Shown here: in pieces, positions 18,796 through 38,020 of the stretch
Position numbering within the stretch: the stretch's first letter is position 1
How the letters are laid out: each line of letters starts with the position of its first letter
Origin: Escherichia phage BF17
Sequence record: MW822008.1
Direction: 5' to 3' (one strand)
Length of the DNA: 64,000 bases
Program-made: the position numbers and the translations under genes
The notes under the pieces: model-generated
What the model was told of the DNA's origin: nothing
The model's input: only the letters and a program-made list of their open reading frames with translations
The model's database searches: none

Positions 18796-19920
18796 TTAAT
18801 TATCTAAGCCACCAATTACACTGAACAGTGTGGTAACGTCTGAACTATTATCTATGTAAGTTCTTCTACCAACATAATATAGTTGTCCTTTTGCTTGAAT
18901 AAAAGTTACGGTCCCTGTATTGAATGTTATAATATCATTGTATGTAATGTCAGGTGGTAGTGCTGCTGATAACGCAGTAACTTTACTTAATGCAGCACTA
19001 GTACTACCATTTATACCAGCAGCAATACTACCAGTACCATAGAACTTATTATCTTTACCAATGAATACGTTGGCTGATGCTTGTGTAGCTGATGTTATTG
19101 CCTTACCAATTTGGAATGCGGTTCCTATGGTGTATGGTGTGCTCCTGGCTGCGTCTATGCTTTGTGTATATCCATCCCCTAGCTGACCATTAACTTTGTC
19201 ACCACATGAGTATAAAGTACCATTGAGGCTGTATATGATCCCACGGTTAGAGAAGCTAACAGCTTCTGCATTAGTCCATACTGGAGCGGTGTATGAGTTT
19301 ACACGACTAGCAGTAGTTCCTAGTCCTAGTATACCATATGTGTTATCACCACATCCAAACCATTGTCCAGTACTGTTTTGATAGAACACTGAACGTTCTG
19401 TTGATTCCATGCGTACAGCATCCACAGCACCACTTTTAACGAACGAAGTGGATGAGGATGTAGTACCAGTACCCAATGCACCATAAGTGTTTGTACCAAT
19501 CGCATAGATTGATCCTAGTGGTGTCATCACACGTATACAGTTATATCCCAATTGAACTTTACATTCAAATAGGTTGTCCCATATTTCAGGAACAGCAGAA
19601 AATAAATTTGTAATTTCGAACCATGATGTTGTCGAACCAATTAATCCTATACTGCTTTTGTTTCCTAAAATGAAAACAGTTTTGTCCTTCTTAATTATCC
19701 ATGATGATAGGAAACCTATCTCACAGCTATGAACATTTGATTCTATTTGGGTAATATAATACTTAACTGTGTTATCACCCATGAATGCCGCAGCACCGGA
19801 TGCAAAAAGGTTTCCAGTTTGTTTATTTAAAATGTAGTTATTGTTTCCATATACACTAACATCATAAGAACTTTCTTGTTTTTCGTTCCCATAATCAAAT
19901 AACAATACGAAAGGTAACAT
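18796..19920 (-). CDS. array member 1: RCC1-like repeat protein
   Basis: 374 aa; N-term MLPFVLLFDYGN; NGQLGDG and YGILGLG repeats; Gly/Thr/Ser/Asn-rich. Confidence 0.75.
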   Translation of the reverse strand: MLPFVLLFDYGNEKQESSYDVSVYGNNNYILNKQTGNLFASGAAAFMGDNTVKYYITQIESNVHSCEIGFLSSWIIKKDKTVFILGNKSSIGLIGSTTSWFEITNLFSAVPEIWDNLFECKVQLGYNCIRVMTPLGSIYAIGTNTYGALGTGTTSSSTSFVKSGAVDAVRMESTERSVFYQNSTGQWFGCGDNTYGILGLGTTASRVNSYTAPVWTNAEAVSFSNRGIIYSLNGTLYSCGDKVNGQLGDGYTQSIDAARSTPYTIGTAFQIGKAITSATQASANVFIGKDNKFYGTGSIAAGINGSTSAALSKVTALSAALPPDITYNDIITFNTGTVTFIQAKGQLYYVGRRTYIDNSSDVTTLFSVIGGLDN

Positions 19921-19997
19921 GATAAAATCTCCTTGTGTTATACTTTATTTAATCATTTTATAATGTACAATTTTACAGCGATTTAATTGAGGTACTC

Positions 19998-20648
19998 ATG
20001 AATAAAAGAAGTAAGTTCTATCAAGAATATTTCACTAAACATAAACGATTCACAAAAAAATACTTTACATCATCCCACCGACCAGTTGCAAGTTACAAAC
20101 GTCCTAATACTAACTATCTTGCTGGTGGCAAGTTTAGTGCAAAGTTCGAATTACTTATGCGTGAAAAGAATATCAAGATGCATTACGCAGAGACGAGAAA
20201 AAACTCATCAATTATTTGCTCTGATTTTCTTGAGTACGGTTGCTTAACTTATAAATTCAATGATGTATATTTGTATATTGATGTTGATTGTAACAGTACT
20301 CTTATGTTTGAGATTTCAATTCACCCAAATCACAACCGTTATATAAACATTAACTTGATTGATAAAGTACTGATTGGTATATCTAGTACTGATGGTGGTG
20401 GATTTGAATTTATTGCTTCAAAATATGATGAAGATTTCGTACTTTACCCAGTACTTGATGATGTGAAAGATATTCTCAATTCATTAAAAGGAAGTCAATA
20501 CAAATTATCTGAAGAACAGCTATTTCAGTACTCACTTATTCATGATGATATCGAGATATACTTAGAGTGTGCGAGAATCTTGGAGTATCTTTATAATGAA
20601 CTAACAACAACTGGTAAAGTGACTGCATTCACATTATATAATATGTAA
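19998..20648 (+). CDS. hypothetical protein, paralog of 40123-40782
   Basis: 216 aa; plus-strand gene inside the minus-strand array; shares CNST and LSEE[QD]LF[QM]YS with 40123-40782. Confidence 0.65.
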   Translation: MNKRSKFYQEYFTKHKRFTKKYFTSSHRPVASYKRPNTNYLAGGKFSAKFELLMREKNIKMHYAETRKNSSIICSDFLEYGCLTYKFNDVYLYIDVDCNSTLMFEISIHPNHNRYININLIDKVLIGISSTDGGGFEFIASKYDEDFVLYPVLDDVKDILNSLKGSQYKLSEEQLFQYSLIHDDIEIYLECARILEYLYNELTTTGKVTAFTLYNM

Positions 20649-20654
20649 AAGAAA

Positions 20655-20673
20655 AGCCAGTACATAGTACTGG
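20655..20673. terminator. bidirectional hairpin
   Basis: GCCAGTACATAGTACTGGC between convergent 19998-20648 and 20681-21817. Confidence 0.55.
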
Positions 20674-20680
20674 CATTATA

Positions 20681-21817
20681 TTAAACTGGTGGAGAATTAT
20701 ATGGCTCAAATTTATAAGTTGTCGTAGCAGTACCAGCAATGGCGTTGTTAGCTAGTATGTACATAGTCCTGTAGTCGATTACCACTACAGTAATACTACC
20801 ACCAAAAGCATAGTCTGTTATGTTATTAGTGTTGAATGGTAAATTAGATGAACTGGTCCATGTATTAGCTGTTGTGCTATTTGTACCATTGGAATAACCT
20901 ACACTAGATGCACCAGTTGTCCATAAGTTTCCATCATTGAACAAGGAGACATGGTTAGTTGTATATGATTTATTAGGTATAGAACTATCAATTGGTGTAT
21001 TCCAAACTTTAGTAACCCATGTTGTAACTGCTGTATTATTAGTAACGCCATTACCTAATGAACCATTTATTGGTATACCTCTTATATAAGAAGTGTTAGT
21101 ACTAGGGTCAACATATCCAAATGTATATGTATCAAATGCAAATTGAAAACAATCAGAACTCGGTAATGTGTACAGTAATGTATATGAAGACGTGTTTATT
21201 GATGAATTTGTACCGTTCACACCTTGGTATAAAATACCACTAGCCAATATTTGATTATTATTTTTTGTTATAGTGTTCATTGATGGATATGTTTTCACAT
21301 CACGCACATCATTAGTCACATATGTTTGTGTTGATAATGCAACGTTACTACCATTACCTATAACCCCTGTATTTGCACCACTCCCATAAAGTGAACCATC
21401 ATTCAAAAGAACCATTGTAACATTACCATTTCCCGTAATTGTTTTAATATTACTAACATCCACCGCAGCAAATACAGTTGATGTTAAATCAGTGAAACGT
21501 GTATAATGTGATGTTGTGCCATTGATTGGTGTCGCAAAACCAGAATACAAAATTCTATTTTCTTTGGTAATAAGGAATGTGCCAGTAACACCATTTGAAT
21601 GGATATCAACAATATTATCGCCCATTAATACCCAATCACTTACGAATGTTGTTGTACCAGTACCCAACCCATATGTCGTATTGTATCCACGTCCATACAC
21701 TCTACCATCACTGAGTAATGTTACCACACATTGACCACCACCACCAAGTATAACTTTTTGTATAGTACTCTTTACTTTTATATTCCCGTACTTAACCATT
21801 CTTGCAAAAGGTAACAT
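20681..21817 (-). CDS. array member 2: RCC1-like repeat protein
   Basis: 378 aa; N-term MLPFARMVKYGN; 14 nt downstream of member 3, so probably co-transcribed. Confidence 0.75.
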   Translation of the reverse strand: MLPFARMVKYGNIKVKSTIQKVILGGGGQCVVTLLSDGRVYGRGYNTTYGLGTGTTTFVSDWVLMGDNIVDIHSNGVTGTFLITKENRILYSGFATPINGTTSHYTRFTDLTSTVFAAVDVSNIKTITGNGNVTMVLLNDGSLYGSGANTGVIGNGSNVALSTQTYVTNDVRDVKTYPSMNTITKNNNQILASGILYQGVNGTNSSINTSSYTLLYTLPSSDCFQFAFDTYTFGYVDPSTNTSYIRGIPINGSLGNGVTNNTAVTTWVTKVWNTPIDSSIPNKSYTTNHVSLFNDGNLWTTGASSVGYSNGTNSTTANTWTSSSNLPFNTNNITDYAFGGSITVVVIDYRTMYILANNAIAGTATTTYKFEPYNSPPV

Positions 21818-21831: not shown

Positions 21832-22980
21832 TTATATTGATGGCATATCCAACACATATGAGTTGCTAGTGATTGATGAATATGTAGAATTTAAACCTGT
21901 ACTATAAACATAATCACCTGCCCATAAGAATGTTCTATCCAATGTTGTATGTATTTCAATATCATCATATGATGATAATGATATTTGTGCTAGTGTATAT
22001 GTAGTAGCATCAATGTTTGAACCAATACCCAAAGTACCATTGTATTGTGATTGGGAGTTTTGACCAGTTGCATATATACCAGATTTGGTTATTAAATGCT
22101 GATTATACATTGACGTACCTTTAAACAATTTAATTAAATTAGAGTTAGGTGTTGTTATTTGTGCAGGAGCAAGTATTGTTGTTGTAGTGCCACCATCACC
22201 TAATTGTCCATATCGTTGGTAACCACCAGCGTATACCTGTTTAACTCCAGTAGTAGTTTCTATAATAAAGAATGAACCATAGCCAGTAGTATTAAAGTCT
22301 ATAATTTTATTTGTACTCAAACCAACATTATATCTAGTAAATGTTGTTGCATTAGCAGAACCACCAGCATTCCCACCGACCATTTGACCACTATAATAAA
22401 ATGCACCAGTACTGTCAGTATAAGCCATACAGTTCTCACTACCATAGATTTTTACTGGTGTACTGGGGAAACTAGAGGTTATATTCACACATGTATTATA
22501 TTTTGCAGTAGTTCCAGTAATTTCACCATTGTTGTTTTGACCAATTGCCCAAACTGTGTCATCGGAACGTATAGCCATTGAGCTAAAAAACGATGACACA
22601 AATTGTTTAATAAAGGAACCAGGGAGGGAAGTAAGCATACTATTGATTTGTGCACTCACATTGGTCCATGTATTCACAACTGAATTGACACCTGCCGCTG
22701 CACCTGAACCTGAACTCCACCATGATTCATCATTCTTTTTAATCAATGTACCGTTAGCAGAACAATAAACATCAGCAACTGAACTATTAACTAATATCCA
22801 TTCCCTCGCTGTTGTGGTATTACCAGTACCTAGCTGTCCTGCTGCATTACTACCCTTAGCATATAAATCACCACTCTGCGTTAAAAGCATAGCATGTTGG
22901 TATCCAGTAGATAATTTCTTTATTTTTGGTAATGCTGGTGCTTCATTTCCATAATCAAACATTCTAACAAAAGGTAACAT
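21832..22980 (-). CDS. array member 3: RCC1-like repeat protein
   Basis: 382 aa; MLPFVRMFDYGN; AGQLGTGNTT and YGQLGDGGTT; own TATAAT/AAGGAGG cassette. Confidence 0.75.
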   Translation of the reverse strand: MLPFVRMFDYGNEAPALPKIKKLSTGYQHAMLLTQSGDLYAKGSNAAGQLGTGNTTTAREWILVNSSVADVYCSANGTLIKKNDESWWSSGSGAAAGVNSVVNTWTNVSAQINSMLTSLPGSFIKQFVSSFFSSMAIRSDDTVWAIGQNNNGEITGTTAKYNTCVNITSSFPSTPVKIYGSENCMAYTDSTGAFYYSGQMVGGNAGGSANATTFTRYNVGLSTNKIIDFNTTGYGSFFIIETTTGVKQVYAGGYQRYGQLGDGGTTTTILAPAQITTPNSNLIKLFKGTSMYNQHLITKSGIYATGQNSQSQYNGTLGIGSNIDATTYTLAQISLSSYDDIEIHTTLDRTFLWAGDYVYSTGLNSTYSSITSNSYVLDMPSI

Positions 22981-23025
22981 AATTCCCTCCTTTATTCATT
23001 ATACTATATTTAATCAAAAAGAAAA

Positions 23026-23044
23026 GCCAGCACTCTGTACTGGC
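23026..23044 (-). terminator. inter-cassette hairpin with T-run
   Basis: GCCAGCACTCTGTACTGGC, then TATAAT and AAGGAGG of the next gene. Confidence 0.55.
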
Positions 23045-23050
23045 ATAATA

Positions 23051-24202
23051 TTATTTCCACGGTAGAAGTGAATCTGGAACTCTTGTTGGTACATTGGTTG
23101 TTGACACACCTGTGAGATTTGGAACACCACATGTATATAAATTATCAGCTTCATCCACTAGCATTGTATAAGAATATCCCCTACAAAAACTACCAATTGC
23201 ACGGCCTTCTAATGCAGAAAGATTCATTTCAGTAAATGTTGTTATATTTGCCACGTTTGAACCAACACCACATTGACCATTTGTATTCAGACCACATAAA
23301 AATAACTTATTATTATTTTTAATTGTACATGATGGCCCTGCAAGGTTTGTGCCAAGTTCACCCACCAACTCTATTTCACCTTGGAATGATAAATTTGGAA
23401 TTAATGCACTCATAGGAACTGGTGTTGTATTTCCAGTACCAGCTTGTCCCCTAACGTTAGTTGAAGCCACTTTGACGGTCCCATCATTAAGAAATATATA
23501 AGAAGTTTCAATTGTATTGACTGCTTTAGTCGCAGTAATAATAGAAGATTCTTGAGTAAATGTTAGTACGTTTTGTGCTGATGTTCCTGATACAAATGTA
23601 TTACCTGCGTACCAATATGTGCCATCATTGAGCACTAATCCAGTACTGCGTATTGCACACCCAGCACTTCGAACATTTTCAATAGTACTATAAGTGAATT
23701 GTGTAACGCTTGCAGTTGAACCATTTCCAAATACACCACCTATTCCCGCTCCACAGTAGAACCACTTTCCATTTTTTAAAAATACACGTAAACAACCAGA
23801 TATAACAATATTATCAATATCATCTGCAATAACACCGAAGTCAGCAAAGTTCTGTGTTACTTCAACCCAAACACCGTTGGTATCTGCTGATAATATTGGA
23901 ATTACAGACCTTGAACCAGTGTACCAAATAGTTCCATTTTTCTTAATAGCAATTGTACCTTGAACACCACCCCAATAACGTTCCACATTTGTATTGACAT
24001 TAGTCCATGAAGTTGATGTGTTAGTTGAGCCATATGCACCATTACCGCTTTGTCCATATGTTGCTGTACCATACCAATATAGATCGCCTGTAGTGTGTAA
24101 ATAAAATTTGGAATCAGCCGAGCATTGTAATCTATTTTTAAATATAGGTTTTGGCTCTGGTGCTACATTCCCGAACTTAACCATTCTTGCAAAAGGTAAC
24201 AT
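23051..24202 (-). CDS. array member 4: beta-propeller-like repeat protein
   Basis: ORF 23051-24268 trimmed to the conserved MLPFARMVKFGN start; the longer reading runs through the RBS. Confidence 0.7.
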   Translation of the reverse strand: MLPFARMVKFGNVAPEPKPIFKNRLQCSADSKFYLHTTGDLYWYGTATYGQSGNGAYGSTNTSTSWTNVNTNVERYWGGVQGTIAIKKNGTIWYTGSRSVIPILSADTNGVWVEVTQNFADFGVIADDIDNIVISGCLRVFLKNGKWFYCGAGIGGVFGNGSTASVTQFTYSTIENVRSAGCAIRSTGLVLNDGTYWYAGNTFVSGTSAQNVLTFTQESSIITATKAVNTIETSYIFLNDGTVKVASTNVRGQAGTGNTTPVPMSALIPNLSFQGEIELVGELGTNLAGPSCTIKNNNKLFLCGLNTNGQCGVGSNVANITTFTEMNLSALEGRAIGSFCRGYSYTMLVDEADNLYTCGVPNLTGVSTTNVPTRVPDSLLPWK

Positions 24203-24247
24203 ATTTCCTCCTTTATTCATTATACTATATTTAATATAAAAAGAAAA

Positions 24248-24266
24248 GCCAGTATCAAGTACTGGC
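24248..24266 (-). terminator. inter-cassette hairpin with T-run
   Basis: minus strand reads GCCAGTACTTGATACTGGC TTTTCTTTTT, then TATAAT, AAGGAGG, ATG. Confidence 0.6.
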
Positions 24267-24279
24267 ATAGTATTAAGGT

Positions 24280-25410
24280 TTAAATATTTTTATAATTAAT
24301 TTCTACATAGTTACGTTGTGTTCCAGTATATCCTGGAACATTACCTAAATTTCCATTACCTGCACCAAACAGACGTTCTCCGACTGCAAAATATGTCCCA
24401 TAGAAACAACCATCAAACACAGGAACATCATTATAATTTGATATGTAATTATCCATTGAATCCATTCTAGTGTATGCAGTCAGAGTTACATTTGTACCTA
24501 TACCATATGCACCATAAGGGTTAGTACCAGCAACATAATACCCAGTGGGTGTACATATTACTGGTGAATTTGCCCCTGATCTCGTGTGGATAAATCTAAA
24601 TGTACCTTCAGGTACTGGTGCTTCTTTACTGAATAATGTTGTAGCTACTACTGGGTAATCAATACCATAACTATTACCACTCAACCACGTTTTACCATCA
24701 CTATCTTTGAATAATGAACAGGATTGTGTGCATCCGAACAGATTCAAATTGGTTACATTTGGAAATTTACTAATTTGTGTATATACCAGAACTGTGGTTG
24801 CGGTAGCACTACCAAGTTGTCCACGACCATTATCACCCGCACTGTACATGTACCCATCGGTCTTTAATATTATACTAGCGTTTCCTAAAATATCAAAATC
24901 AACAACATCCGTTTGTGTTAATGTAGCTATAGGATAACGAAAATTCACTGCCTCACCAGTACCAAATTGACAATTGGTGTTTACCCCACATCCATATAAG
25001 TTGCCGTTTTGCATTAATATAAACAAACCTGTTGTCATTTTAATTTTCTTAATATTAAGAATATCTATATCTTGGAATATGTGTGTTACATTTACAAATG
25101 TGGTTGAGTTAACAGCACTTGAACCATAATAAGAACCGTTCCCGCTACCAAAGAATTCATCGCCTTTTCTGTACATTGCACATAGACTGCCACCCCATAC
25201 ATCATCAACTCCAGTGTCAATTTGAATAACTGAAGTAACACTAGTTGTTGCACCAGTGCCAAGTTCACCACCTGAATTGAATCCAAAACCATACAAATCT
25301 CCACTTTCGGTGAGCACCAAAACACTGTTAGTGGTTGTGCATGAAATCTTTTTGATATTATTAGATGGTCTTTTATTTCCGTACTTAACCATTCTTGCAA
25401 AAGGTAACAT
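24280..25410 (-). CDS. array member 5: RCC1-like repeat protein
   Basis: trimmed to MLPFARMVKYGN; GGELGTG and RGQLGS repeats. Confidence 0.7.
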   Translation of the reverse strand: MLPFARMVKYGNKRPSNNIKKISCTTTNSVLVLTESGDLYGFGFNSGGELGTGATTSVTSVIQIDTGVDDVWGGSLCAMYRKGDEFFGSGNGSYYGSSAVNSTTFVNVTHIFQDIDILNIKKIKMTTGLFILMQNGNLYGCGVNTNCQFGTGEAVNFRYPIATLTQTDVVDFDILGNASIILKTDGYMYSAGDNGRGQLGSATATTVLVYTQISKFPNVTNLNLFGCTQSCSLFKDSDGKTWLSGNSYGIDYPVVATTLFSKEAPVPEGTFRFIHTRSGANSPVICTPTGYYVAGTNPYGAYGIGTNVTLTAYTRMDSMDNYISNYNDVPVFDGCFYGTYFAVGERLFGAGNGNLGNVPGYTGTQRNYVEINYKNI

Positions 25411-25454
25411 AATTCCTCCTTTATTCATTATACTATATTTAATCAAAAATAAAA

Positions 25455-25473
25455 GCCAGTATCAAGTACTGGC
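25455..25473 (-). terminator. inter-cassette hairpin
   Basis: GCCAGTATCAAGTACTGGC on plus strand. Confidence 0.6.
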
Positions 25474-25487
25474 ATAGTTTTATAGTA

Positions 25488-26597
25488 TCATTTCGGCATT
25501 GTAATTGCAGACCATGAGTTCGTGGTAATAGGACCTGGCACATACAAAAAAGAACCACAAGCATAAATTTGATTATTACCATCAAATACTATACTAAAAT
25601 GTGCACATGTGTATAATGCTGATTTTTCTGGGTTGTAATTATCTAAAGTTAGTGTATTGGTGAATCTACTCAAACCACCACCAGAACCATTTCTACCAAA
25701 TTCACCAGTACTATATATCTTTCCTTCGGTTGTTGCGTACATATTAACATATGAAGTTGCACTTGATTTTGATATTTTATGTATCTTACTATCAATAGTA
25801 GTGGAGTTAAATGCAAATGGATATACTTGTGTGTTCGTTGTAATACCGTTACCAAGTTGACCAACATACTGCCAACCTGCGTTGTATATATTGCTGGCTG
25901 AATAAGCAAGAGTACCAGTACTGTTACCACCAAACAGTTTAACACTGGTTAACCTGCTTACTAGTGTAGTATACTGTCCTGGACTTACGCCAAGTGAACC
26001 ATACCCACTACTCCCACAACCGAGAAGTTCACCATTTGATGTTAATATTAATGTGTTATTCTGTGTACCCAATATATCAAGGACTGTATTAGCTCCGGTA
26101 TTAATAACTGAAACAAAAGTACTCTGAGCCGTGGAATACCCACCACCGAGTGAATAGTTACCATTCATGCCTCTACCATAAACAATCGAACCACTAGCAT
26201 CAACGTAGTGCATTGTATCTGCACCAATTGATATCATTTTAATATTAGATATATGTGGAAATGAAGAAGTAACATTCAAACCACCCAACGGAATCGTAGT
26301 ATTTCCTGTGCCTAATTGTGTGGTAACTCCATGCATTATGAATTCTTCACCCTTGATATAAAGAATATTGTACGCCCCAGCCCATGCATCAGTAACACCT
26401 TCTGAAATTAATATCCAAGTATTTCTTGTTGCTGTATTTGTAACGTTTAACTGAAAATACGAATTAACCCCACAACCATAAAGTGAGCCATCGCCATAGA
26501 GGACGTACAAATTATCAAGACCGCACAGTACTTTCTTTATCTTTGGATCTTCAGGTGCAATATTCCCGTAATCAAACATTCTAACAAAAGGTAACAT
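25488..26597 (-). CDS. array member 6: RCC1-like repeat protein
   Basis: trimmed to MLPFVRMFDYGN; VGQLGNG repeat. Confidence 0.7.
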   Translation of the reverse strand: MLPFVRMFDYGNIAPEDPKIKKVLCGLDNLYVLYGDGSLYGCGVNSYFQLNVTNTATRNTWILISEGVTDAWAGAYNILYIKGEEFIMHGVTTQLGTGNTTIPLGGLNVTSSFPHISNIKMISIGADTMHYVDASGSIVYGRGMNGNYSLGGGYSTAQSTFVSVINTGANTVLDILGTQNNTLILTSNGELLGCGSSGYGSLGVSPGQYTTLVSRLTSVKLFGGNSTGTLAYSASNIYNAGWQYVGQLGNGITTNTQVYPFAFNSTTIDSKIHKISKSSATSYVNMYATTEGKIYSTGEFGRNGSGGGLSRFTNTLTLDNYNPEKSALYTCAHFSIVFDGNNQIYACGSFLYVPGPITTNSWSAITMPK

Positions 26598-26668: not shown

Positions 26669-27406
26669 TTAGACTGAATTGTCAGGATAATATCTCCCAC
26701 GTCCCCATATTATTCGCACAGCACCACCACCAGCAGCCGTATAAGAAGAATTATCCCATATACTACCACCACCACCATACCTCTTACCAGCACCACCACT
26801 ACCAGCACCACCATTATATGAACCATCGTAGCTACCACCAATACCATTAGCACCTTGAACAATGATACCAGTACCACCACCCGTACCAATGAACGAGGTA
26901 TTATAGAATGCACCACCACCACCGCCCCCGCCAGCACCATTTTCACCAGTGATTGCATTTCCGTTACCACCTTTACCTGTGTAGCCACCAGCACCACCAC
27001 CAATGACTGCACCACCACTTAAACCAGTGTTGCCACCATTACCACCACCATCATTAATAGCGTTAGCAGCTTTTCCACCTAGTCCACCAACCGTATATGC
27101 ACCAGTGAAGCTAACACATAGTTTTTCAGTTCCACGATATAAACCGTTTTCAACTGCTGTAGTAGTGTTGGGATGTGTAAGAGAAACACTTAAGTACTCA
27201 CCACCAGAAACCGGAATATTATTACGCCACGATAAGCCGCCACCAGCACCACGTTGACCACCCGGCGAAATAACACATACTGATATTTCGGTAACGCCAG
27301 CAGGAACTGTAAATTGTGTTGTTCCTATTGTCGTGATTAATTGTTCACCATGTGGCTTATATTCAATTTTATTCCCGAACTTAACCATTCTTGCAAAAGG
27401 TAACAT
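26669..27406 (-). CDS. array member 7: glycine-rich protein with the shared N-terminal tag
   Basis: 245 aa; MLPFARMVKFGN followed by long poly-Gly tracts. Confidence 0.7.
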   Translation of the reverse strand: MLPFARMVKFGNKIEYKPHGEQLITTIGTTQFTVPAGVTEISVCVISPGGQRGAGGGLSWRNNIPVSGGEYLSVSLTHPNTTTAVENGLYRGTEKLCVSFTGAYTVGGLGGKAANAINDGGGNGGNTGLSGGAVIGGGAGGYTGKGGNGNAITGENGAGGGGGGGAFYNTSFIGTGGGTGIIVQGANGIGGSYDGSYNGGAGSGGAGKRYGGGGSIWDNSSYTAAGGGAVRIIWGRGRYYPDNSV

Positions 27407-29952: not shown

Positions 29953-31062
29953 TTATTTTGGTAAATCAATTTTAGTAAAGACTGCAACATCCTCGCTTGC
30001 TCCAGGAATGGCGTAATACGATCCAGTACTATACACATCTCCATCTTTGGTTAATATTGATGTCAAACCATCACTAAAAAGAACATCCCTAATTGCACTA
30101 ACTTCAACGGGTAATTGTAAATTTGTAGCACTATATATAGCACCAGTTTGAGAATTGTTTAATCCCAAACCACGGTTCGCCCCAACACCCTTCTGATATG
30201 TACTAGTAATTACCATTTGTGTCGCAGTATTTAAGGCAGGTGAATTCGTCATAAACAACGGAGAACTATTCGGCAAAGTACTTACAGGAACTGCACGGAA
30301 TGTAGTCGTACCTGAACTAAGAAAGTTTGGAGTTTGACCACATACGAAATATGATGTGCCATTATAGTAATTTAATGCATTACCACCAATTGCTGCATCG
30401 ATTACACCAGAACTACGTAATCCCCAAGTGTTAACTTGTGTTTGGCTCCCCGTGCCATGCTGCCCACTGCTATTCCATCCAGAACTATATAGCTTATTAT
30501 CTAATGTAAGATACATACTATCATTCGCATTGGTCATTACTTTACGAACGTTCGTAGCACATTGAGTTAATGTGTAAATTGATGATGAACCAATACCTAA
30601 AGAACCACGATATCCATTATCTCCTGCACCATAGAGTACTGAATTAGTGCTAAGTACAAATATTAAACCATTTGTACATACAATATTAGCAATTTCACTT
30701 ACTGGTATTGCATTTGTGAACCAACTGGTTCTATCAACTAATACAGTACTGTAAGAAGTAGTTGTGGAAGATGTGAACCAGTACGTTTGACCTGATGACC
30801 ATATCGTATTATCATTTTTAATAATAACAAGTGTACGATCACCCACGAAAAAATTAGAAACATCTGTACTTACTAATATCCATGAGGATACTGTGTTGGT
30901 ATTTCCATTTCCAGATTCACCACCTTGATTTCTACCTATGTAATATAAATCATGTGAATCTGTCAATAAGAATTGACCCTGTGTAGAAGCACCAACTTTA
31001 ATTATATTTTTAGGACCAGGTGTGATATTCCCATAATCAAACAATCTAACAAAAGGTAACAT
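29953..31062 (-). CDS. array member 10: beta-propeller-like repeat protein
   Basis: 369 aa; MLPFVRLFDYGN; 10 nt downstream of member 11. Confidence 0.7.
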   Translation of the reverse strand: MLPFVRLFDYGNITPGPKNIIKVGASTQGQFLLTDSHDLYYIGRNQGGESGNGNTNTVSSWILVSTDVSNFFVGDRTLVIIKNDNTIWSSGQTYWFTSSTTTSYSTVLVDRTSWFTNAIPVSEIANIVCTNGLIFVLSTNSVLYGAGDNGYRGSLGIGSSSIYTLTQCATNVRKVMTNANDSMYLTLDNKLYSSGWNSSGQHGTGSQTQVNTWGLRSSGVIDAAIGGNALNYYNGTSYFVCGQTPNFLSSGTTTFRAVPVSTLPNSSPLFMTNSPALNTATQMVITSTYQKGVGANRGLGLNNSQTGAIYSATNLQLPVEVSAIRDVLFSDGLTSILTKDGDVYSTGSYYAIPGASEDVAVFTKIDLPK

Positions 31063-31072: not shown

Positions 31073-32203
31073 TTAATTTAGTAATGCCCCTGGCAAATCC
31101 ACTTTGACGAATTGTGCATATGCTGAGGAATTTTGATCAAAGTTTGGTCCCAATCCATAAAATGAGCTAATGCCGTCTTCATTTGTGTATATGATATAAA
31201 CGTTCTTTACATCATTTCCGCATATAAATCGAATGTCTTTCGTTTGTGTTCCCGCTGGAACATTACGAAGGTTCACAACGCCATTACTTGCATTGTTATC
31301 AGCCGACGCAATTGGTAATTGATTTTGACCATATTGACCACGCATATTTTTTGCATCTAAACCAAACACAGTATCTGATACCGCACCAACTTTCAAAAAT
31401 GAACCAAAACTATTATTGAATGACTTTGGAAATGTACCACTATAAACACTTCTCCCATCTGATAATACCGCTGAACTGAATTTCCCGCTATTCGATATGG
31501 CAAATTCATTGTAAGGAAGTGTACCCATTTTGGTATATACAGAATATGAATTAGTGGAAGTATTATCAATAATCTTATTACCATTATATCCAATACCATA
31601 CTGGTATCCGTCTGCATCTTGAACTATACACAAAGGACCACTTGGGGTTTGTGTCAACGAAACAACACGTTCAACTTGTATATCACCAAATGTATTTCTT
31701 CGCCATGTTCTATCTATTATAGTACTAGTATTACCCAAAGATAATGCCACACTATATAATAGATTGTTTTCAGTAAAAATGGCAACATAATATGCGTGGT
31801 TAATAACTTGCTTCATCCCAGCATCAATAACTTCCTGTGGAATATGATCAGTAACATCCAACCAATCAAGGTTAGATGATGCAATATCTGGAGTACTGAA
31901 TTTGTCAAATCTAGTTGAGCCACAAACTAGCACTCTATCATCATTTGTCAAAGCCACTGTGCTAGTCTGCATATTAGAACTGAATGATTTAACATTACTA
32001 ATGTTAGACTTGTACCAACCCTTATCAGCAGCACCCACCGTGAATCCGGTTCCCATTGATCCACTTGTACTTGTACCATAAGCCCACATCTCACCACTAT
32101 ATGTTAGTGCCATACAGTGGCTTCCATTTGCTTGGAAATCCTTTATACCAGTGGGAGCAACCACTGTATTCCCATAATCAAACATTCTAACAAAAGGTAA
32201 CAT
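31073..32203 (-). CDS. array member 11: beta-propeller-like repeat protein
   Basis: trimmed to MLPFVRMFDYGN; more divergent body. Confidence 0.65.
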   Translation of the reverse strand: MLPFVRMFDYGNTVVAPTGIKDFQANGSHCMALTYSGEMWAYGTSTSGSMGTGFTVGAADKGWYKSNISNVKSFSSNMQTSTVALTNDDRVLVCGSTRFDKFSTPDIASSNLDWLDVTDHIPQEVIDAGMKQVINHAYYVAIFTENNLLYSVALSLGNTSTIIDRTWRRNTFGDIQVERVVSLTQTPSGPLCIVQDADGYQYGIGYNGNKIIDNTSTNSYSVYTKMGTLPYNEFAISNSGKFSSAVLSDGRSVYSGTFPKSFNNSFGSFLKVGAVSDTVFGLDAKNMRGQYGQNQLPIASADNNASNGVVNLRNVPAGTQTKDIRFICGNDVKNVYIIYTNEDGISSFYGLGPNFDQNSSAYAQFVKVDLPGALLN

Positions 32204-32245
32204 AACTAAAATCTCCATATAATAATTATAATGTATTTACAAAAA

Positions 32246-32269
32246 AATACCAGTACGTATTTCAGTACT
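32246..32269 (-). terminator. inter-cassette hairpin (variant)
   Basis: ACCAGTACGTATTTCAGTACTGGT. Confidence 0.5.
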
Positions 32270-32277
32270 GGTATCAT

Positions 32278-33459
32278 TTATGGTAAAATGATAGATTGTA
32301 ACGAACTCATACCCAATGCTGGAACACTAGCCTGTGGTGCTGGAGAATTCAATTTTGGTGATGAAACCGCATAAGTCATTCCTGTACCCAAATCTGGATC
32401 AAAAACTACAGCACAATAATTCCCACTATATATAAGTCCATTCTTGTATCCTTGTGCACTTTGAATGCATTTCGTGAACGTACCAATATCTGTAGTGGCA
32501 TTTATTAAGTTCCTCCCACGATAACCGCAGGTGTATATGAAATTATCATCGCCTATGTACATACTAGAATCCCCAGAAGAACTACATAGATACGACATAT
32601 AAGCACGCATGTTTTTAGGAGCAACTGACAATGTACCTGCATAGAATTTATTATTCGAACCCGTAATATCACCATCACCCAATGCACCAAAACTTCCCCA
32701 GCCAGTACCGTAATATCTCTTATCACTCAAAAATATAATACAGTTGTTATTACACATCTTGATTTGATATATCAATGAAGGATCAACCCCAGGGAATGAT
32801 TCAGTGAATGTTAGAACAGCCGGATCAGTACTAGCATTACATTGATGATATGTATTAGTACCAGCGGACAAGATTGTTCCATTAGCTAACAGAATTCTCG
32901 CAGTACCAGTACCAGCAGTACAAGCAACTGCACTTCCTGCACTTCCGGTGTATATTTGTCTGAAAGTAAAGAAACCAACAGTCTTACTCCCTTGTCCACT
33001 CCAACCAGTATTATCAACACCACACGCCCATACTGAACCATCTTCCATGATCATCATTACACCAAAGCGTTCTATTGAAATATAAACAATCTTTTTAGTA
33101 TCAACTGCACGAAATCTAGAAGTTATATCCGTCCAAACCTTTACACTTACCGAAGTCGCACTGGAAGTAGGATCTTCACCTGCTATCATTATCCTACCAT
33201 TGTTAGTCAGATACATTGTCTGACTATAACCAGTACTACAAAACTTAACACTATCAGTCTCTGGAACTTTTAACCACTCGTTGTAACGTGTTACGTTAGT
33301 GTTATTACCTAACTGATAATAGTTATTCATCCCAGATACATATAACACACCATCCTTTATTAAACTATAAGTCGCACTATAGTCACTACAGGTATAACGT
33401 GTACCCACAGGTCGCTCAACGACGTTCCCATAATCAAACATTCTAACAAAAGGTAACAT
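32278..33459 (-). CDS. array member 12: beta-propeller-like repeat protein
   Basis: 393 aa; MLPFVRMFDYGN; 9 nt downstream of member 13. Confidence 0.7.
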   Translation of the reverse strand: MLPFVRMFDYGNVVERPVGTRYTCSDYSATYSLIKDGVLYVSGMNNYYQLGNNTNVTRYNEWLKVPETDSVKFCSTGYSQTMYLTNNGRIMIAGEDPTSSATSVSVKVWTDITSRFRAVDTKKIVYISIERFGVMMIMEDGSVWACGVDNTGWSGQGSKTVGFFTFRQIYTGSAGSAVACTAGTGTARILLANGTILSAGTNTYHQCNASTDPAVLTFTESFPGVDPSLIYQIKMCNNNCIIFLSDKRYYGTGWGSFGALGDGDITGSNNKFYAGTLSVAPKNMRAYMSYLCSSSGDSSMYIGDDNFIYTCGYRGRNLINATTDIGTFTKCIQSAQGYKNGLIYSGNYCAVVFDPDLGTGMTYAVSSPKLNSPAPQASVPALGMSSLQSIILP

Positions 33460-33468: not shown

Positions 33469-34662
33469 CTATGATTGCCATAACTGCGTTGGCATTAATG
33501 TTAATGTTTTAATTAAGTAAGTACCATCCGGTAAGTTACCACCTGAACCGTTAAAGCCCCCACATGCATATAATTTATAATCTTTAGTTATAATTATTGT
33601 TCTGGACCAGTCTTTGGATGCCATAAGAACATTGTCATATCCACCCTGTATCGCACTTAAAGAAAACGCCCCCCACGAAGTAATTACTGTTGTATTTCCC
33701 GTCCCTTCTTGACCATATGTATTGATGCCTGCACTCCTGACATATGATGGGTATTGAGCCATAGGTGCACCAATTGTTGAGTTACCCATATTACTAGGAC
33801 ACAGGAAACCATCACTAATATTCACTATAACCTGTGAATTCTGAACTGTAGTTAATTGGTTTGTAGTTGAAGTAGTACCATTCCCAGCTTGTCCAGAATT
33901 GTTTCTACCACTCCAGTACACCCTACCGGCAGTGAACCACCAGGTAACATCATAAGTAGCACTTATATAATCGACGTTGGTTCGTATTAATTTATTAGTA
34001 AAAACGTATGAGCTAGTCCCACCACCACTTTCACCAAAGTTATCCTTACCACAAAACCATGCTTCTTTATTTGTTTTGAGATAGTGCGTACCCTGTAATG
34101 AACACGCCAATTGAGAAACTTCACCCATACCAGTAACAACTGTTAGTACTGGAATGGAATTTTGGTTACCTGTTCCACATTCGGCATTTGCATTTTTACC
34201 ACAAACAACTACTCTTCCATCGTGTAGTAATATTCTAGTACTTTCACCTATATGTACACTCTTGATTAAATTAGCGTGTACATTTATTTTGTTAAATGCG
34301 GCAGTAACATCAGTCCATGTTCTAAAATAACCATTAACTGGAGTTGCATCTCCATAATCGGGGAATGCTACAGTATTCCCTGTGAAATATATTCTATTAT
34401 CCAAGTCAATCATCAATGAGCCATGAACGCCTAACCAAAAGGCTGCACAGTGCGTTGCCAGTACTGTAAAAGTAGAAACTGTCGATTGATTCCCTAGACC
34501 TAATTGGCTCAAGTTATTACCACCATAACCGTATAGTGTATTCGTGGGCTTATGTAGATACATAGCATTAGTATAATGTTGCTGTAAAACATCAGTGAAC
34601 TCAACTGGTTCAGGAATAGGCAGTTTATTCCCGTATTTAACCATTCTTGCAAAAGGTAACAT
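33469..34662 (-). CDS. array member 13: RCC1-like repeat protein
   Basis: 397 aa; MLPFARMVKYGN. Confidence 0.7.
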   Translation of the reverse strand: MLPFARMVKYGNKLPIPEPVEFTDVLQQHYTNAMYLHKPTNTLYGYGGNNLSQLGLGNQSTVSTFTVLATHCAAFWLGVHGSLMIDLDNRIYFTGNTVAFPDYGDATPVNGYFRTWTDVTAAFNKINVHANLIKSVHIGESTRILLHDGRVVVCGKNANAECGTGNQNSIPVLTVVTGMGEVSQLACSLQGTHYLKTNKEAWFCGKDNFGESGGGTSSYVFTNKLIRTNVDYISATYDVTWWFTAGRVYWSGRNNSGQAGNGTTSTTNQLTTVQNSQVIVNISDGFLCPSNMGNSTIGAPMAQYPSYVRSAGINTYGQEGTGNTTVITSWGAFSLSAIQGGYDNVLMASKDWSRTIIITKDYKLYACGGFNGSGGNLPDGTYLIKTLTLMPTQLWQS

Positions 34663-34725
34663 ATTTCCCTCCTTTATTCATTATACTATATTTAATCAAA
34701 AATAAATGCCAGTACTCATTTAATT

Positions 34726-35880
34726 TTAACGAGGTATAACTATTTTTTTGAATAATCCAGTATTTCCTGCATTTTCTTCTTCATATGGAATTGTACCCAT
34801 ACCAGCAGTTCTGCCACCATTCCCTGAACCATACAGTTCTCCATTCTTAATCATGAATGTTATCATATAACCATGTGTCATTTTATCATATGGAACTGGT
34901 TCAGTTATATTATTACATGCTCGCCATGTACTAATAACACGAGAGTTCGTTATACCATCACCTGATGCGTTTCCTCGACCAGCGAAATACCATATCCCAC
35001 CTGCTCTAACGTGTGCTTCATAATTAGAACCACCTATGTAATCAATCGCAGTACTAGGAATACTAGAAGCTGGTATCTTTGTGATTGTTCTAAGACTGTT
35101 AATAGTGCCATCAGTTCCATCACCCAACTGTCCATCTATTTGTGAACCGAATACATATAGCCCATCACTCTTTAATACGTAATTAGCACTATATGCATTT
35201 TCTGAATTTATCTGTAATACTCCAGTAGTAACAGTAGTCAATGTGGTAGTTGTACTAGTCGTACCAGTCGAACCAATACTAGATTTATTCCCACTGTACT
35301 TTAATGTCCCATCATTGTATAATACAAATGAAGCATTATTCGCGGTTACACCAATATCTTTAACATCAACTTCAGGTGTCAATGTCAGTACTGATACTCT
35401 TTGTCCAACAGCCCCAGTAAAAACTTCACCGTTGTTATTGTCACCCATCTTATATAATTTATTATCTATTGTTAATAATAATGTAACGCCGTTTCCTATA
35501 ACTATTTTACTATATGTGTCATTCACATTATTAAAAATACCAAGTATTTCTGTCCATACACGATAAGTAGTATTAACACCACGATAGATTTGAGTACCAG
35601 TACTCCACCATGTGCCATCATTTTTACGTACTAATATTCCTTGTGTATCACCAGTAGTCCAAAATTCCTTTACATCAGTTAAACATAAAACCCACTCTTC
35701 AACTATAGTAGGAGAACTACTACCAGTACCTAATTGATAGTAAAAATTATGCCCTCTGCCATATAATCTTCCGTCTTCTAATAAAATAAACACATTATTC
35801 TGTAAAACTTTTACCATCTTTATACCAACTGGCACAGGTGCTTCATTCCCATAATCGAACATTCTAACAAAAGGTAACAT
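34726..35880 (-). CDS. array member 14: RCC1-like repeat protein
   Basis: ORF 34726-36015 trimmed to MLPFVRMFDYGN; DGQLGDGTDGT. Confidence 0.7.
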   Translation of the reverse strand: MLPFVRMFDYGNEAPVPVGIKMVKVLQNNVFILLEDGRLYGRGHNFYYQLGTGSSSPTIVEEWVLCLTDVKEFWTTGDTQGILVRKNDGTWWSTGTQIYRGVNTTYRVWTEILGIFNNVNDTYSKIVIGNGVTLLLTIDNKLYKMGDNNNGEVFTGAVGQRVSVLTLTPEVDVKDIGVTANNASFVLYNDGTLKYSGNKSSIGSTGTTSTTTTLTTVTTGVLQINSENAYSANYVLKSDGLYVFGSQIDGQLGDGTDGTINSLRTITKIPASSIPSTAIDYIGGSNYEAHVRAGGIWYFAGRGNASGDGITNSRVISTWRACNNITEPVPYDKMTHGYMITFMIKNGELYGSGNGGRTAGMGTIPYEEENAGNTGLFKKIVIPR

Positions 35881-35926
35881 ATTCCCTCCTTTATTCATTA
35901 TAATATATTTAATACAAAAAAGAAAA

Positions 35927-35945
35927 GCCAGTATCAAGTACTGGC
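35927..35945 (-). terminator. inter-cassette hairpin
   Basis: GCCAGTATCAAGTACTGGC. Confidence 0.6.
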
Positions 35946-35953
35946 ATATTAAT

Positions 35954-37102
35954 TTACTGCACAAATGACATATCGACTTCGGTATAATTAAGAACGTTCT
36001 GTCCAGCACTACCACCCATTACTACAAATGAAGCACCCGAATAATATAACTTCGAAGTGTCAGTAAGTATAAGTGAACCAGATGGAGTGCGTACCAAATT
36101 ACACGAAGTATTAAACGAAGTATATGAAGGAGTATAGGAGTACTGATTATTATTATTACCAACACCTAATTGCCCAAACCCATTCGATCCAGAAGCATAT
36201 AGAACTTCATCTGCTTTGACAATATGTGATGCCATGTTACCAACACAAGTATATAGAGTATAAACTCCTGAACTCAATAATGTCGGAGTTTTATATTGTA
36301 TATCTGTAGATGTAGAAGTACCACCTGTACCAAATTCGTTCCCATATTGTGCACCGAACTGTTTACCACAAGCGTACAAATTATTATCCGATTTGATAAA
36401 AAATGTACTCTGATAACTTACATTAAAATCTATAACATCCGAAGAAATCATCGTCACCCCAGTAATAGAAGTTTGATTACCCGTGCCCAACTGGTAGTAA
36501 TAGTTAAAACCACAACCCCATAAAGTATTATCTTCTCGCAAATAAATGTTACCAACTGCCTTTTTAACCGAAGTTATAGTATCTACTCTTTTGAATGTGT
36601 TAAAAGAATTAATGTTTGTGCCATCACCAAATGATGATATGTTCGATATATTGTTAGTTCCACAACAATACAATGTACCATCGTTTGTTATCAAATTCAC
36701 CTTCATATCATAAAAACTACTCATGTATTTTATATCAGAAACATTAATACCACTTGATGTTATCCACGTAGTACAGTCCGTCCACAAAGTTTTTCTATCA
36801 GTTACACCAGTGAATGCCTTCGTGTTACCAGTGATAAAAACTTTTCCAGTACCTTTCTCTTCATACAATTGACAATCACTACTGTTATCTTCCAATAGAA
36901 CTCGTTTAACATTCTCCGCACAAAGAATAAATTTACTCGATGTTACACCTGTACCAGTACCCCAATTCGCCGCAGAAGATGCATACAACTTATCAGTATA
37001 AGTATCATGAAGATACATAGAATCACTGGAATATATTTTAAAACGCCCAGAGTTGGTAGGTGCTTCATTCCCATAATCAAACATTCTTACAAAAGGTAAC
37101 AT
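35954..37102 (-). CDS. array member 15: RCC1-like repeat protein
   Basis: 382 aa; MLPFVRMFDYGN; YYQLGTGNQTS and FGQLGVGNNNN; 12 nt downstream of member 16. Confidence 0.75.
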   Translation of the reverse strand: MLPFVRMFDYGNEAPTNSGRFKIYSSDSMYLHDTYTDKLYASSAANWGTGTGVTSSKFILCAENVKRVLLEDNSSDCQLYEEKGTGKVFITGNTKAFTGVTDRKTLWTDCTTWITSSGINVSDIKYMSSFYDMKVNLITNDGTLYCCGTNNISNISSFGDGTNINSFNTFKRVDTITSVKKAVGNIYLREDNTLWGCGFNYYYQLGTGNQTSITGVTMISSDVIDFNVSYQSTFFIKSDNNLYACGKQFGAQYGNEFGTGGTSTSTDIQYKTPTLLSSGVYTLYTCVGNMASHIVKADEVLYASGSNGFGQLGVGNNNNQYSYTPSYTSFNTSCNLVRTPSGSLILTDTSKLYYSGASFVVMGGSAGQNVLNYTEVDMSFVQ

Positions 37103-37114
37103 ATTTCCTCCAAA

Positions 37115-38020
37115 TTATTTAAAAACATACTGCGTATTAACACGTGTCCCGTTGTCGTAACCAAGTACGTAAAATATTTCAGCACTATTATTAGAGCCAA
37201 ATAATGCACCAGTACTATTACTCAACGTTGTATTGATAGCTAATGGTATCCATTTGTTTTGCTCGGCATCATATTTTAATAAATTTAATGCACCATAAGA
37301 TACTGCATATATACCTTTGTCATATCTATTGTAAATTATCTTACTAGGGTTAGCTCCACCAACTGCTGCCATTCTTGACCAAACCGCACTCTCTATGTGA
37401 TATTTTTGTGCAGGAGTAGATCCTTGTCCTGTAAAATATATGTAAGTACCATCAGTGCACATATCACCACCACCATTGTTTGTTGTATTCCCAGTAGTAC
37501 CTAACGATGCCCATGTATTAGTACTCGGCGTATAACTATATAATGCAGTATTAGACGGTGAACCCCACAAATATATCTTATCCCCTGTAGTAATCATCTT
37601 ACTATATACTGCCTGGTTAGGTTTGCCAACACTTGTATTATTCAGTGTCCATGTATCAGAGCTTATGTCATATACATAAAAATTATTATTAGCAACATTC
37701 GCTGCACCTAAACCACCGAACAAATATATTTTTCCTTGATAGGCACACAATGCACTTCCATAGGTGGATACTGGTGGTGATGATAATTGTACCCATATTC
37801 TAGAATTTAAATTAAAACTCCATAACTGATTATCCTGGTTCGAAGTATTCATTATACCACCAAATATATAAGCAGTATTTCTTGATGCATCATACGTATA
37901 ACCAAAGTTATTTCGTGCTGAAGGTACTGGTGATGTGGTAAATTGAGTTCGTACACCACCATTTGGGACTGGTAATGGAGCTTCATTCCCGTAATCAAAC
38001 ATTCTAACAAAAGGTAACAT
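37115..38020 (-). CDS. array member 16: Kelch-like repeat protein with the shared N-terminal tag
   Basis: 301 aa; MLPFVRMFDYGN then repeated IY(L)FGG...W blades. Confidence 0.7.
   Translation of the reverse strand: MLPFVRMFDYGNEAPLPVPNGGVRTQFTTSPVPSARNNFGYTYDASRNTAYIFGGIMNTSNQDNQLWSFNLNSRIWVQLSSPPVSTYGSALCAYQGKIYLFGGLGAANVANNNFYVYDISSDTWTLNNTSVGKPNQAVYSKMITTGDKIYLWGSPSNTALYSYTPSTNTWASLGTTGNTTNNGGGDMCTDGTYIYFTGQGSTPAQKYHIESAVWSRMAAVGGANPSKIIYNRYDKGIYAVSYGALNLLKYDAEQNKWIPLAINTTLSNSTGALFGSNNSAEIFYVLGYDNGTRVNTQYVFK

Follow-up and report, generated by a model that had tools for sequence, protein, structure and literature searches.

A 64,000-nt stretch of the genome of Escherichia phage BF17 (MW822008.1), hereafter the window, to which all coordinates refer, contains an array of 16 minus-strand genes (18796–38020) whose products share a 12-residue N-terminal peptide, here called the tag, fused to divergent bodies. 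These genes appear to encode late-expressed accessory adhesins or receptor-binding heads docked to the phage particle by the short N-terminal peptide, a reading to which we assign a probability of roughly 0.55. The array would then be a library of late-expressed, low-copy virion proteins, each consisting of two separable modules: a 12-residue address peptide followed by a short Pro-rich linker, and a compact ligand-binding head. Of the heads in the window, 14 are RCC1-like propellers, one is a Kelch propeller and one a TNF-like/polyglycine fibre-tip domain; sister genera add ConA-like lectins. The peptide, unstructured on its own, would dock, probably as an added beta-strand ending in a YGN turn, on a conserved structural-protein site of the particle of this phage clade, and sites of this kind would present many different heads, which would serve as accessory adhesins or receptor-binding modules. 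New heads are gained, lost and exchanged between phages by recombination at joints formed by a conserved cassette (terminator hairpin, late-type promoter and Shine-Dalgarno sequence) and the tag codons.

The pattern [MLVI]LPF..[KD][YF]GN was matched exactly 16 times in a six-frame scan of the 64 kb, always on the minus strand and at the start of an open reading frame (ORF); no copy was found elsewhere in the window. Within the array the tag reads MLPF[AV][RL][ML][VF][KD][YF]GN and comes in two flavours, VK (MLPFARMVK[YF]GN; 6 of 16 genes) and FD (MLPFV[RL][ML]FDYGN; 10 of 16, including the divergent copy MLPFVLLFDYGN of gene 1). A 46-nt unit around the start codon was recovered 16 times by a repeat finder, with a spacing of about 1.2 kb. 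Median pairwise identity is 79% for the tag 12-mer and 20% for the bodies (range 13–28%). An earlier note on this DNA had described 16 tagged genes with two flavours in six and ten members and divergent bodies, and the six-frame scan and identity values bear it out, the limits of the array being identical as well. Its statement that the genes are consecutive requires correction: a plus-strand ORF (19998–20648) sits between genes 1 and 2. In three genes, the mechanical ORF listing overshoots the MLPF start upstream.

The first half of the array is 97% identical to Escherichia phage fEgEco12, and the array matches 121Q, PBECO4, phAPEC6, CMSTMSU and other Asteriusvirus genomes (348–386 kb) piecewise. 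By these genome matches, the phage is a Rak2-like jumbo myovirus of the genus Asteriusvirus and not a classical T4-like phage, as which it had been framed earlier. As the earlier note suggested, related genomes were searched for the motif and its copy number. Searches by tblastn with the tag retrieved 55 phage records, all from Rak2-like jumbo phages; combined with a degenerate DNA scan, they gave 1 to 16 copies per genome, in the 348–386 kb genomes of this clade only. Over IMG/VR, matches to the degenerate DNA pattern were confined to contigs of 348–378 kb. The tag occurs at 5–15 places per Asteriusvirus genome, in Salmonella phages 7t3, SE_PL and Munch (the last with 14 or more tagged genes, which bear the variant MIPF[AT]RIL.YGN), in seven genes of Pectobacterium phage CBB (CBB_548–554), and in Klebsiella phage fENko-Kae01, Cronobacter phage GAP32, Serratia phage BF and Erwinia Eneladusviruses. 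RaK2, K64-1 and PA5oct gave no tblastn match to the tag. Across the clade, the bodies fused to it are of the RCC1, Kelch, LamG/ConA-like lectin and glycine-rich types. Where genome ends are evident, the position of the tagged locus is constant, just before the terminal repeat or genome end; in fEgEco12 the array ends about 5 kb ahead of the 20,993-bp terminal repeat.

In both AlphaFold models obtained, those of genes 5 and 7, the tag is predicted to be a disordered N-terminal extension, with a predicted local distance difference test score (pLDDT) below 50 for residues 1–9 and 1–10, respectively; a Pro-rich stretch follows it in most members. Many beta-propellers have their ring closed by an N-terminal strand, and the 12-mer might likewise be integral to the propeller, as a "velcro" strand closing the ring. 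The first propeller strand of the gene 5 model lies, however, at residues 19–24, beyond the low-confidence segment, the identical tag is present on non-propeller bodies, and it is far more conserved than any blade. A closing strand was rejected by both models, and we give this alternative practically no weight. Conservation of the tag was computed over 95 tagged proteins (62 distinct 13-mers). Positions P3 and F4 are invariant, M1, Y10, G11 and N12 reach at least 97% and R6 90%; positions 7 and 8 are hydrophobic, and 5, 9 and 13 are free. The resulting clade-wide consensus is M-[LI]-P-F-x-R-h-h-x-Y-G-N. Retention of the even positions L-F-R-h-Y, with variable positions 5 and 9 and a terminal G-N turn, is the pattern that would be expected of a docking beta-strand.

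Such conservation could in principle reside in the nucleic acid, the 5' end of each gene being a regulatory or recombination cassette (a translation-initiation region or a gene-conversion homology arm) that happens to encode a functionless peptide. A cassette of about 70 nt, described below, is indeed nearly identical upstream of 8–10 copies whose bodies are about 20% identical, Leu2 is encoded by TTA in 30 of 30 copies inspected, CCT and AGA do not vary within the window, and recombination breakpoints fall at the tag. By contrast, Pro, Arg, Tyr, Gly and Phe codons differ between genera while the residues stay constant: CBB, GAP32 and BF keep them with Pro CCA/CCT/CCG/CCC, Arg AGA/AGG and Gly GGA/GGT/GGG. 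Within the array, too, synonymous codons differ at positions 5, 8, 9, 10, 11 and 12, and the few replacements are conservative (M/L, Y/F); variation concentrates at positions 5 and 9 rather than at third codon positions. Genes 2, 10, 12 and 15 lack a cassette of their own yet keep the tag to the same degree, and it is also conserved in CBB, BF and Munch despite unrelated upstream DNA (the DNA upstream of the tag in GAP32 is likewise unrelated to that of the window). The tag is thus conserved as a peptide; purely DNA-level conservation was rejected on the cross-genus codon variation, and we regard it as very unlikely.

Tag and body behave as separate modules in evolution. By protein identity, genes 6 (96–97%), 10 (96%), 15 (93%) and 8 (85–89%) have close counterparts in 121Q/phAPEC6; these counterparts carry [AGT]RM[VM][KN]YGN, whereas the window genes carry VR[ML]FDYGN. 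The 96% and 93% values for genes 10 and 15 refer to 121Q members bearing the VK tag. Only the K-type flavour is present in 121Q and phAPEC6, and the FD flavour is found only in the lineage of fEgEco12, CMSTMSU and the window. DNA identity just downstream of the tag is 94–99% in five of six pairs (77–85% for genes 8 and 15), falls to 78–86% within flavour-switching tags, and is 26–37% upstream of those tags, where neighbouring genes differ. Near-identical bodies bearing another flavour indicate that tag and body recombine as modules. That the 12-mer is a distinct unit, as had been proposed, is borne out by this flavour exchange together with disorder in two models, codon variation and attachment to at least five body types.

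The array is also a mosaic at the level of whole cassettes. Genes 4, 11 and 16 have no counterpart in fEgEco12, whose array contains two other members and follows a different order. Gene 1 is 99% identical to fEgEco12 g580, and gene 4 is 64–76% identical to 121Q members. Within one and the same pair of genomes, synonymous divergence of individual array members spans 0.004 to 0.49; gene 10 is nearer 121Q, gene 9 nearer fEgEco12. The spread of divergence and the mixed nearest relatives indicate separate histories for individual cassettes. The ratio of nonsynonymous to synonymous substitution rates (dN/dS), whose analysis along the array had been advised, is mostly 0.1–0.3 for the bodies, with no sign of gene-wide positive selection. 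The copies are thus kept by selection and are not decaying. As separate observations, several 121Q/phAPEC6 members are cut to 52–74 amino acids (aa) yet keep the tag (L006:18515–18721 and 22184–22408; L005:14262), one tagged remnant bears the variant MLPFGRIITSSK, which resembles the MLPFPIISN variant of Serratia phage BF, and many apparent frameshifts in the array of the CMSTMSU record probably reflect sequence quality.

A parallel arrangement was found outside the clade. In other phage lineages, gene 7 homologues open with different peptides (MLE[LMT]L, MIELL, or MFEMML in PVP-SE1), and many begin with M[LIF]E[LMT][LM]. The E. coli assembly GCA_009015555.1 includes a phiTE-like phage contig, about 150 kb long, with two such genes (L025:2459–3109 and L025:10001–10693): a LamG-like protein starts with MNEMLMLG and a glycine-rich protein with MLEMLTVG, giving a shared N-terminus M[LN]EML..G. 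The LamG-like protein is 34–35% identical to the MLPF-tagged GAP32_002 and BF_0548 (E 1e-23 to 3e-25). Two body families are therefore common to both lineages, each with the lineage's own N-terminal peptide, as would be expected if the peptide fits a lineage-specific particle site. By this comparison the tag goes with the phage chassis, not with the body.

The nature of the bodies was examined by profile searches and structure prediction. Matches to the Pfam families RCC1 (PF00415), RCC1_2 (PF13540) or WD40_RLD (PF25390) were obtained for 14 of the 16 proteins, 12 of them above the gathering score of RCC1 or RCC1_2; genes 2 and 4 gave only sub-threshold or WD40_RLD matches, and none of the 16 proteins reached the WD40_RLD whole-domain cut-off of 150 bits. 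Gene 5, the sole RCC1-type member modelled, was predicted to form a propeller (pLDDT 81.6, predicted template-modelling score 0.85) for which Foldseek returned UVR8, HERC2 RLD and RCC1 (E down to 2.5e-22, template-modelling scores 0.7–0.8). A word-indexed homologue search with gene 5 found nine proteins, too few for a deep alignment. Gene 16 matched Kelch_KLHDC2_KLHL20_DRC7 with 92.7 bits (cut-off 50) and Kelch_1, 2, 3, 4 and 6, all above their cut-offs; it shows weak similarity to NanM/YjhT sugar mutarotases, with mutarotase-type NCBIfam matches below threshold.

Gene 7 had no Pfam match even at E 0.1, NCBIfam gave no match for it or for gene 5, and its sequence and profile matched nothing in the PDB, relatives being revealed by fold comparison alone. 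The PF21722 Gly_rich_2 profile, which gene 7 itself does not match, is found in many of its homologues (E down to 1e-15). Its model combines a TNF-like beta-sandwich with a polyglycine lattice, as in the fibre tip of the Pam3 gp24 type. In Pam3 this unit is the receptor-binding fibre end and has been compared to gp38, the adhesin of phage S16 (PMC9608196); as modelled, the gene 7 body folds like the receptor-binding tip of a tail fibre. Like S16 gp38, and in this respect alone among the array products, it is a small protein that would have to attach to the particle via its N-terminus. Pam3 gp24 docks by a trimeric N-terminal helical bundle and gp38 by a small folded domain (PMC9608196), whereas gene 7 offers only the 12-mer tag and linker: no N-terminal trimeric helical shaft was seen in its model, which contains no helix and begins its beta-sandwich at residue 20. 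The RCC1-like, Kelch-like and glycine-rich bodies named in the earlier note are thus supported by Pfam, Foldseek and the gene 7 fold. Its proposal of interchangeable binding modules on a docking peptide is in keeping with the fibre-tip fold and with a separate 12-mer, binding itself being putative. The heads look external, to judge from the secretion or surface domains borne by the closest cellular RCC1 relatives and from matches of some array proteins to PHROG tail-protein families.

Related records annotate the array genes as "chromosome condensation regulator" or "putative DNA condensation protein", and the phAPEC6 paper reports "eleven RCC1-like proteins", taken as tandem duplicates (PMC7247149). 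Were this annotation, present in most related records, correct, the proteins would structure the packaged genome or target the DNA of host or phage, and the phAPEC6 authors speculate on DNA ordering around the inner body (PMC7247149). The name, however, is merely transferred from the RCC1 fold: RCC1 is a guanine-nucleotide exchange factor for Ran, which bacteria lack, structural matches are equally good to the functionally unrelated UVR8, HERC2 and RPGR, and the same tag also heads Kelch, lectin and fibre-tip bodies, none of which is connected with DNA. A role in DNA condensation is, in our estimation, extremely improbable. The existing annotation also bears on novelty. The earlier note had not recognised the architecture, of which two elements are on record: the RCC1 array has been annotated and, for phAPEC6, discussed (PMC7247149), and N-terminal docking peptides are known (PMC6872550, PMC13352976). 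The shared tag itself is apparently undescribed; its strings had no match in the literature searched, and genome papers of the clade (Sharanji and EJP2 included) and jumbo-phage reviews are silent on tag and array function. What appears new, as not found in searchable literature, is one clade-wide 12-mer uniting RCC1, Kelch, lectin and polyglycine proteins into one tagged family, and likewise the tag-flavour swap and the parallel tag in another lineage.

Virion mass spectrometry, advised in the earlier note, could be drawn from published proteomes. In phAPEC6, gp003, 005, 006, 007, 009 and 010 were detected, and the tag was confirmed on each; of these, gp009 corresponds to gene 6 (97% identity) and gp005 to gene 9 (84%). 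The CBB virion proteome includes CBB_548, 549, 551, 552 and 553, all tagged, that of GAP32 the tagged GAP32_001, and that of JP4 the tagged JP4_577, 581 and 582, the last being the orthologue of gene 9. According to these proteomes, tagged proteins are virion components in four phages. The mass spectrometry supplements for CBB and JP4 are at protein level, and the published data sets give neither location nor N-terminal peptides.

The same data bear on the main rival explanation, which places the proteins inside the particle. The capsid-targeting signal (CTS) of phage T4 is a 10-residue N-terminal peptide, sufficient for incorporation, on divergent proteins of a hypervariable locus (IPI, IPII, IPIII and Alt; PMC9026906). 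A 12-mer of this kind would send a variable propeller library into the prohead core or inner body, to be packaged alongside the DNA and delivered to the host cell on ejection, where they might, for instance, counter defences or assist takeover. The likeness extends to the short N-terminal address, the divergent proteins, the plastic locus and the T4-like head genes of the phage, and phAPEC6 has an inner body whose components are not known (PMC7247149). Tagged proteins are of low abundance in virion mass spectrometry, with no location given, RCC1 and Kelch folds are typical protein–protein interaction scaffolds, and the array differs strongly between near-identical phages, as expected of arms-race genes. 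By contrast, the T4 CTS is cut off by the prohead protease at a Glu-containing site, whereas no conserved Glu or L/I-x-E cleavage motif was found at or after the tag (position 9 is K/D/E/S/T and residue 13 I/K/T/V/E), a weak test given that the protease specificity of the clade is not known. CTS cargo is internal and ejected; the heads described here have adhesin or lectin folds, and the fibre-tip fold of gene 7 and the ConA-like lectins elsewhere in the clade would be odd internal cargo. The same two body families carry a different tag in the non-T4-like phage of about 150 kb, and the heads, of 25–43 kDa, are not conspicuously basic (judged by eye from the translations). Capsid targeting is accordingly held to be unlikely.

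Expression signals were analyzed around the array. A near-identical cassette of about 70 nt (GC-rich hairpin, T-run, TTAAATATAGTATAATGAATAAAGGAGG and ATG) precedes ten genes, and a variant of it gene 11; a 26-nt upstream motif was observed 10 times against 0.00 expected. Genes 2, 10, 12 and 15 start 9–14 nt past the preceding stop codon and, given this spacing, are presumably co-transcribed with the gene before them. Terminator-like sites are enriched (22 against 8.1 ± 3.2 expected), and sigma-70-like promoters show no enrichment (76 against 97 expected). A TTAAATATAG element ([GT]TAAATA[CT]) lies 32–37 nt before the ATG in 11 of the 16 genes. The two annotated virion genes of the window have TATAAATAT(AG), resembling TTAAATATAG, at a similar upstream distance, and in CBB an ATAAATA motif before structural genes has been proposed as a late promoter. 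This resemblance makes late expression of the array genes plausible. Promoter/stem-loop cassettes, termed PeSLs, were reportedly described by Arbiol, Comeau and Krisch in 2010 as mediating modular gene shuffling in T4-type genomes. As is said of PeSLs, repeated intergenic units of stem-loop terminator and promoter flank variable genes here and coincide with recombination joints. PeSLs carry early promoters and flank small non-structural genes; the array has instead a promoter-like element of the late TAAATA type, and its repeat takes in the first 36 nt of the gene, which specify a functional peptide.

The closest known parallel to the proposed docking is provided by N-terminal "conserved peptides" of 7–11 residues, which dock secondary receptor-binding proteins in K1E/K1-5/SP6-like phages and also in the PhiK64-1/RaK2 group (PMC6872550). 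Groups using them further include Klebsiella phages KP32, KP34 and Menlow (Latka et al. 2019, PMC6872550; Latka et al. 2026, PMC13352976), and the conserved peptide has been validated experimentally as a docking element (PMC13352976). Both systems have a very short, group-specific N-terminal peptide common to proteins with unrelated distal domains, and in both the distal modules are exchanged horizontally; the PhiK64-1/RaK2 group belongs, moreover, to the same broad Rak2-like clade as BF17. The conserved peptide fixes proteins to the virion, whereas for the tag virion presence comes from published proteomes and docking is predicted. The tag differs in sequence, serves up to 16 proteins instead of one or few, and carries small, apparently monomeric propellers, lectins and polyglycine domains in place of trimeric beta-helix depolymerases; no anchor or T4gp10-like branching partner was identified for it.

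What the analysis shows is modularity, conservation at the peptide level, confinement to one clade, a fibre-tip fold for one head, mosaicism of the cassettes and, from the literature, virion association. We infer a docking role for the tag, an external location of the heads, their putative binding to glycans or host surfaces, and the identity and number of docking sites. The single common partner and the host-range role suggested in the earlier note are hypothetical. Several points weigh against this reading. No docking partner was identified: the two annotated virion genes of the window (4172–4555 and 5403–6914) have no informative domains, and structural proteins listed in CBB supplement S5 as common to CBB and GAP32 and absent in RaK2, such as CBB_225 and CBB_226 (long-tail-fibre proximal subunit), would be candidates at most. 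The heads have no trimerising shaft, unlike classical receptor-binding proteins; RCC1 and Kelch propellers are generic protein-binding scaffolds and could equally bind host proteins after injection. Mass spectrometry is blind to external versus internal location, and peptide counts are low (1–8). The late-promoter assignment is one of motif resemblance only. Finally, the hair-like fibres known in this clade do not track the tag: Atu_ph07, described as hairy, gave no tag match by tblastn, and GAP32 has tagged proteins yet no reported whiskers. A more specific version of the docking proposal, which we put forward tentatively and think doubtful, would have the 16 monomeric heads compete for one class of multi-copy docking site, with a stochastic adhesin mixture per particle as combinatorial bet-hedging; heads would be plug-and-play across genera, and the FD flavour (charge reversal K9 to D, and V8 to F) would represent a second, orthogonal docking specificity spread by gene conversion.

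If docked adhesins are what the array encodes, a misleading "chromosome condensation regulator" label would be replaced on about 5% of the genome across a jumbo-phage clade, and more than 90 proteins now without any function class would receive one. For the unexplained hair-like or fibrous decorations of the clade, there would be a concrete, testable protein set with its address peptide. If 12 residues suffice to load folded domains of any kind on a large virion, such a tag would serve display or host-range reprogramming, a use paralleling the validated conserved-peptide system of podophages. The locus is also a clear phage example of exon-like module shuffling, with the terminator–promoter–ribosome-binding site–tag cassette as the joint. 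The tagged genes and their cassettes are listed in Table 1.

Table 1. Tagged genes of the BF17 array and the cassettes upstream of them (positions in the window).
Feature	Position	Strand	Tag start	Description
Gene 1	18796..19920	-	19920	Divergent tag MLPFVLLFDYGN and RCC1-like propeller, 374 aa
Gene 2	20681..21817	-	21817	MLPFARMVKYGN and weak RCC1-like body, 378 aa; 14 nt after gene 3; without own cassette
Gene 3	21832..22980	-	22980	MLPFVRMFDYGN and RCC1-like propeller, 382 aa
Gene 4	23051..24202	-	24202	MLPFARMVKFGN and RCC1-like propeller, 383 aa counted from MLPF start
Gene 5	24280..25410	-	25410	MLPFARMVKYGN and RCC1-like seven-bladed propeller, 376 aa; modelled by AlphaFold
Gene 6	25488..26597	-	26597	MLPFVRMFDYGN and RCC1-like propeller, 369 aa
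Gene 7	26669..27406	-	27406	MLPFARMVKFGN and TNF-like/polyglycine (Gly_rich_2 family) adhesin-type body, 245 aa
Gene 8	27478..28668	-	28668	MLPFVRLFDYGN and RCC1-like propeller, 396 aa
Gene 9	28739..29881	-	29881	MLPFARMVKYGN and RCC1-like propeller, 380 aa
Gene 10	29953..31062	-	31062	MLPFVRLFDYGN and RCC1-like propeller, 369 aa; 10 nt after gene 11
Gene 11	31073..32203	-	32203	MLPFVRMFDYGN and weak RCC1-like body, 376 aa; upstream cassette is a variant
Gene 12	32278..33459	-	33459	MLPFVRMFDYGN and RCC1-like propeller, 393 aa; 9 nt after gene 13
Gene 13	33469..34662	-	34662	MLPFARMVKYGN and RCC1-like propeller, 397 aa
Gene 14	34726..35880	-	35880	MLPFVRMFDYGN and RCC1-like propeller, 384 aa counted from MLPF start
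Gene 15	35954..37102	-	37102	MLPFVRMFDYGN and RCC1-like propeller, 382 aa; 12 nt after gene 16
Gene 16	37115..38020	-	38020	MLPFVRMFDYGN and Kelch propeller, 301 aa
Cassette, type example	22981..23050	-		Hairpin GCCAGTAC-loop-GTACTGGC and T-run, then TTAAATATAGTATAATGAATAAAGGAGG, then ATG
Cassette	24203-24279			Near-identical
Cassette	25411-25487			Near-identical
Cassette	26598-26668			Near-identical
Cassette	27407-27477			Near-identical
Cassette	28669-28738			Near-identical
Cassette	29882-29952			Near-identical
Cassette	34663-34725			Near-identical
Cassette	35881-35953			Near-identical
Cassette	32204-32277			Variant
Cassette	38021-38100			Variant

The surroundings of the array contain further gene families. 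The plus-strand ORF that interrupts the array (216 aa) and another at 40123–40782 (219 aa), 2 kb beyond its far end, show weak similarity near the C-terminus (35% over 55 aa, pairwise E 3e-4); each is assigned to a PHROG of its own. Adjoining the array on the plus strand (38124–43107) is a second tandem family of about 25 small ORFs of 59–77 aa with the pattern M..KEYY...L... and the endings LKLISI or LIYRY; its counterparts are runs of hypothetical genes of about 60 aa in fEgEco12 (g596–g613) and 121Q (249–265). Just before the array, seven successive plus-strand ORFs of 104–123 aa (16320–18759) correspond to fEgEco12 g573–g579, and at least the last four are hydrophobic, membrane-protein-like paralogues with a basic tail. 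Farther upstream (15482–16252, plus strand), a 256-aa P-loop NTPase with AAA/STAND-like Pfam matches (phrog_1250) lies amid small, early-looking genes. At about 44 kb, the sign of the GC skew flips and G+C rises from about 0.33 to 0.39; by comparison with fEgEco12, this shift may mark the start of the terminal-repeat region.

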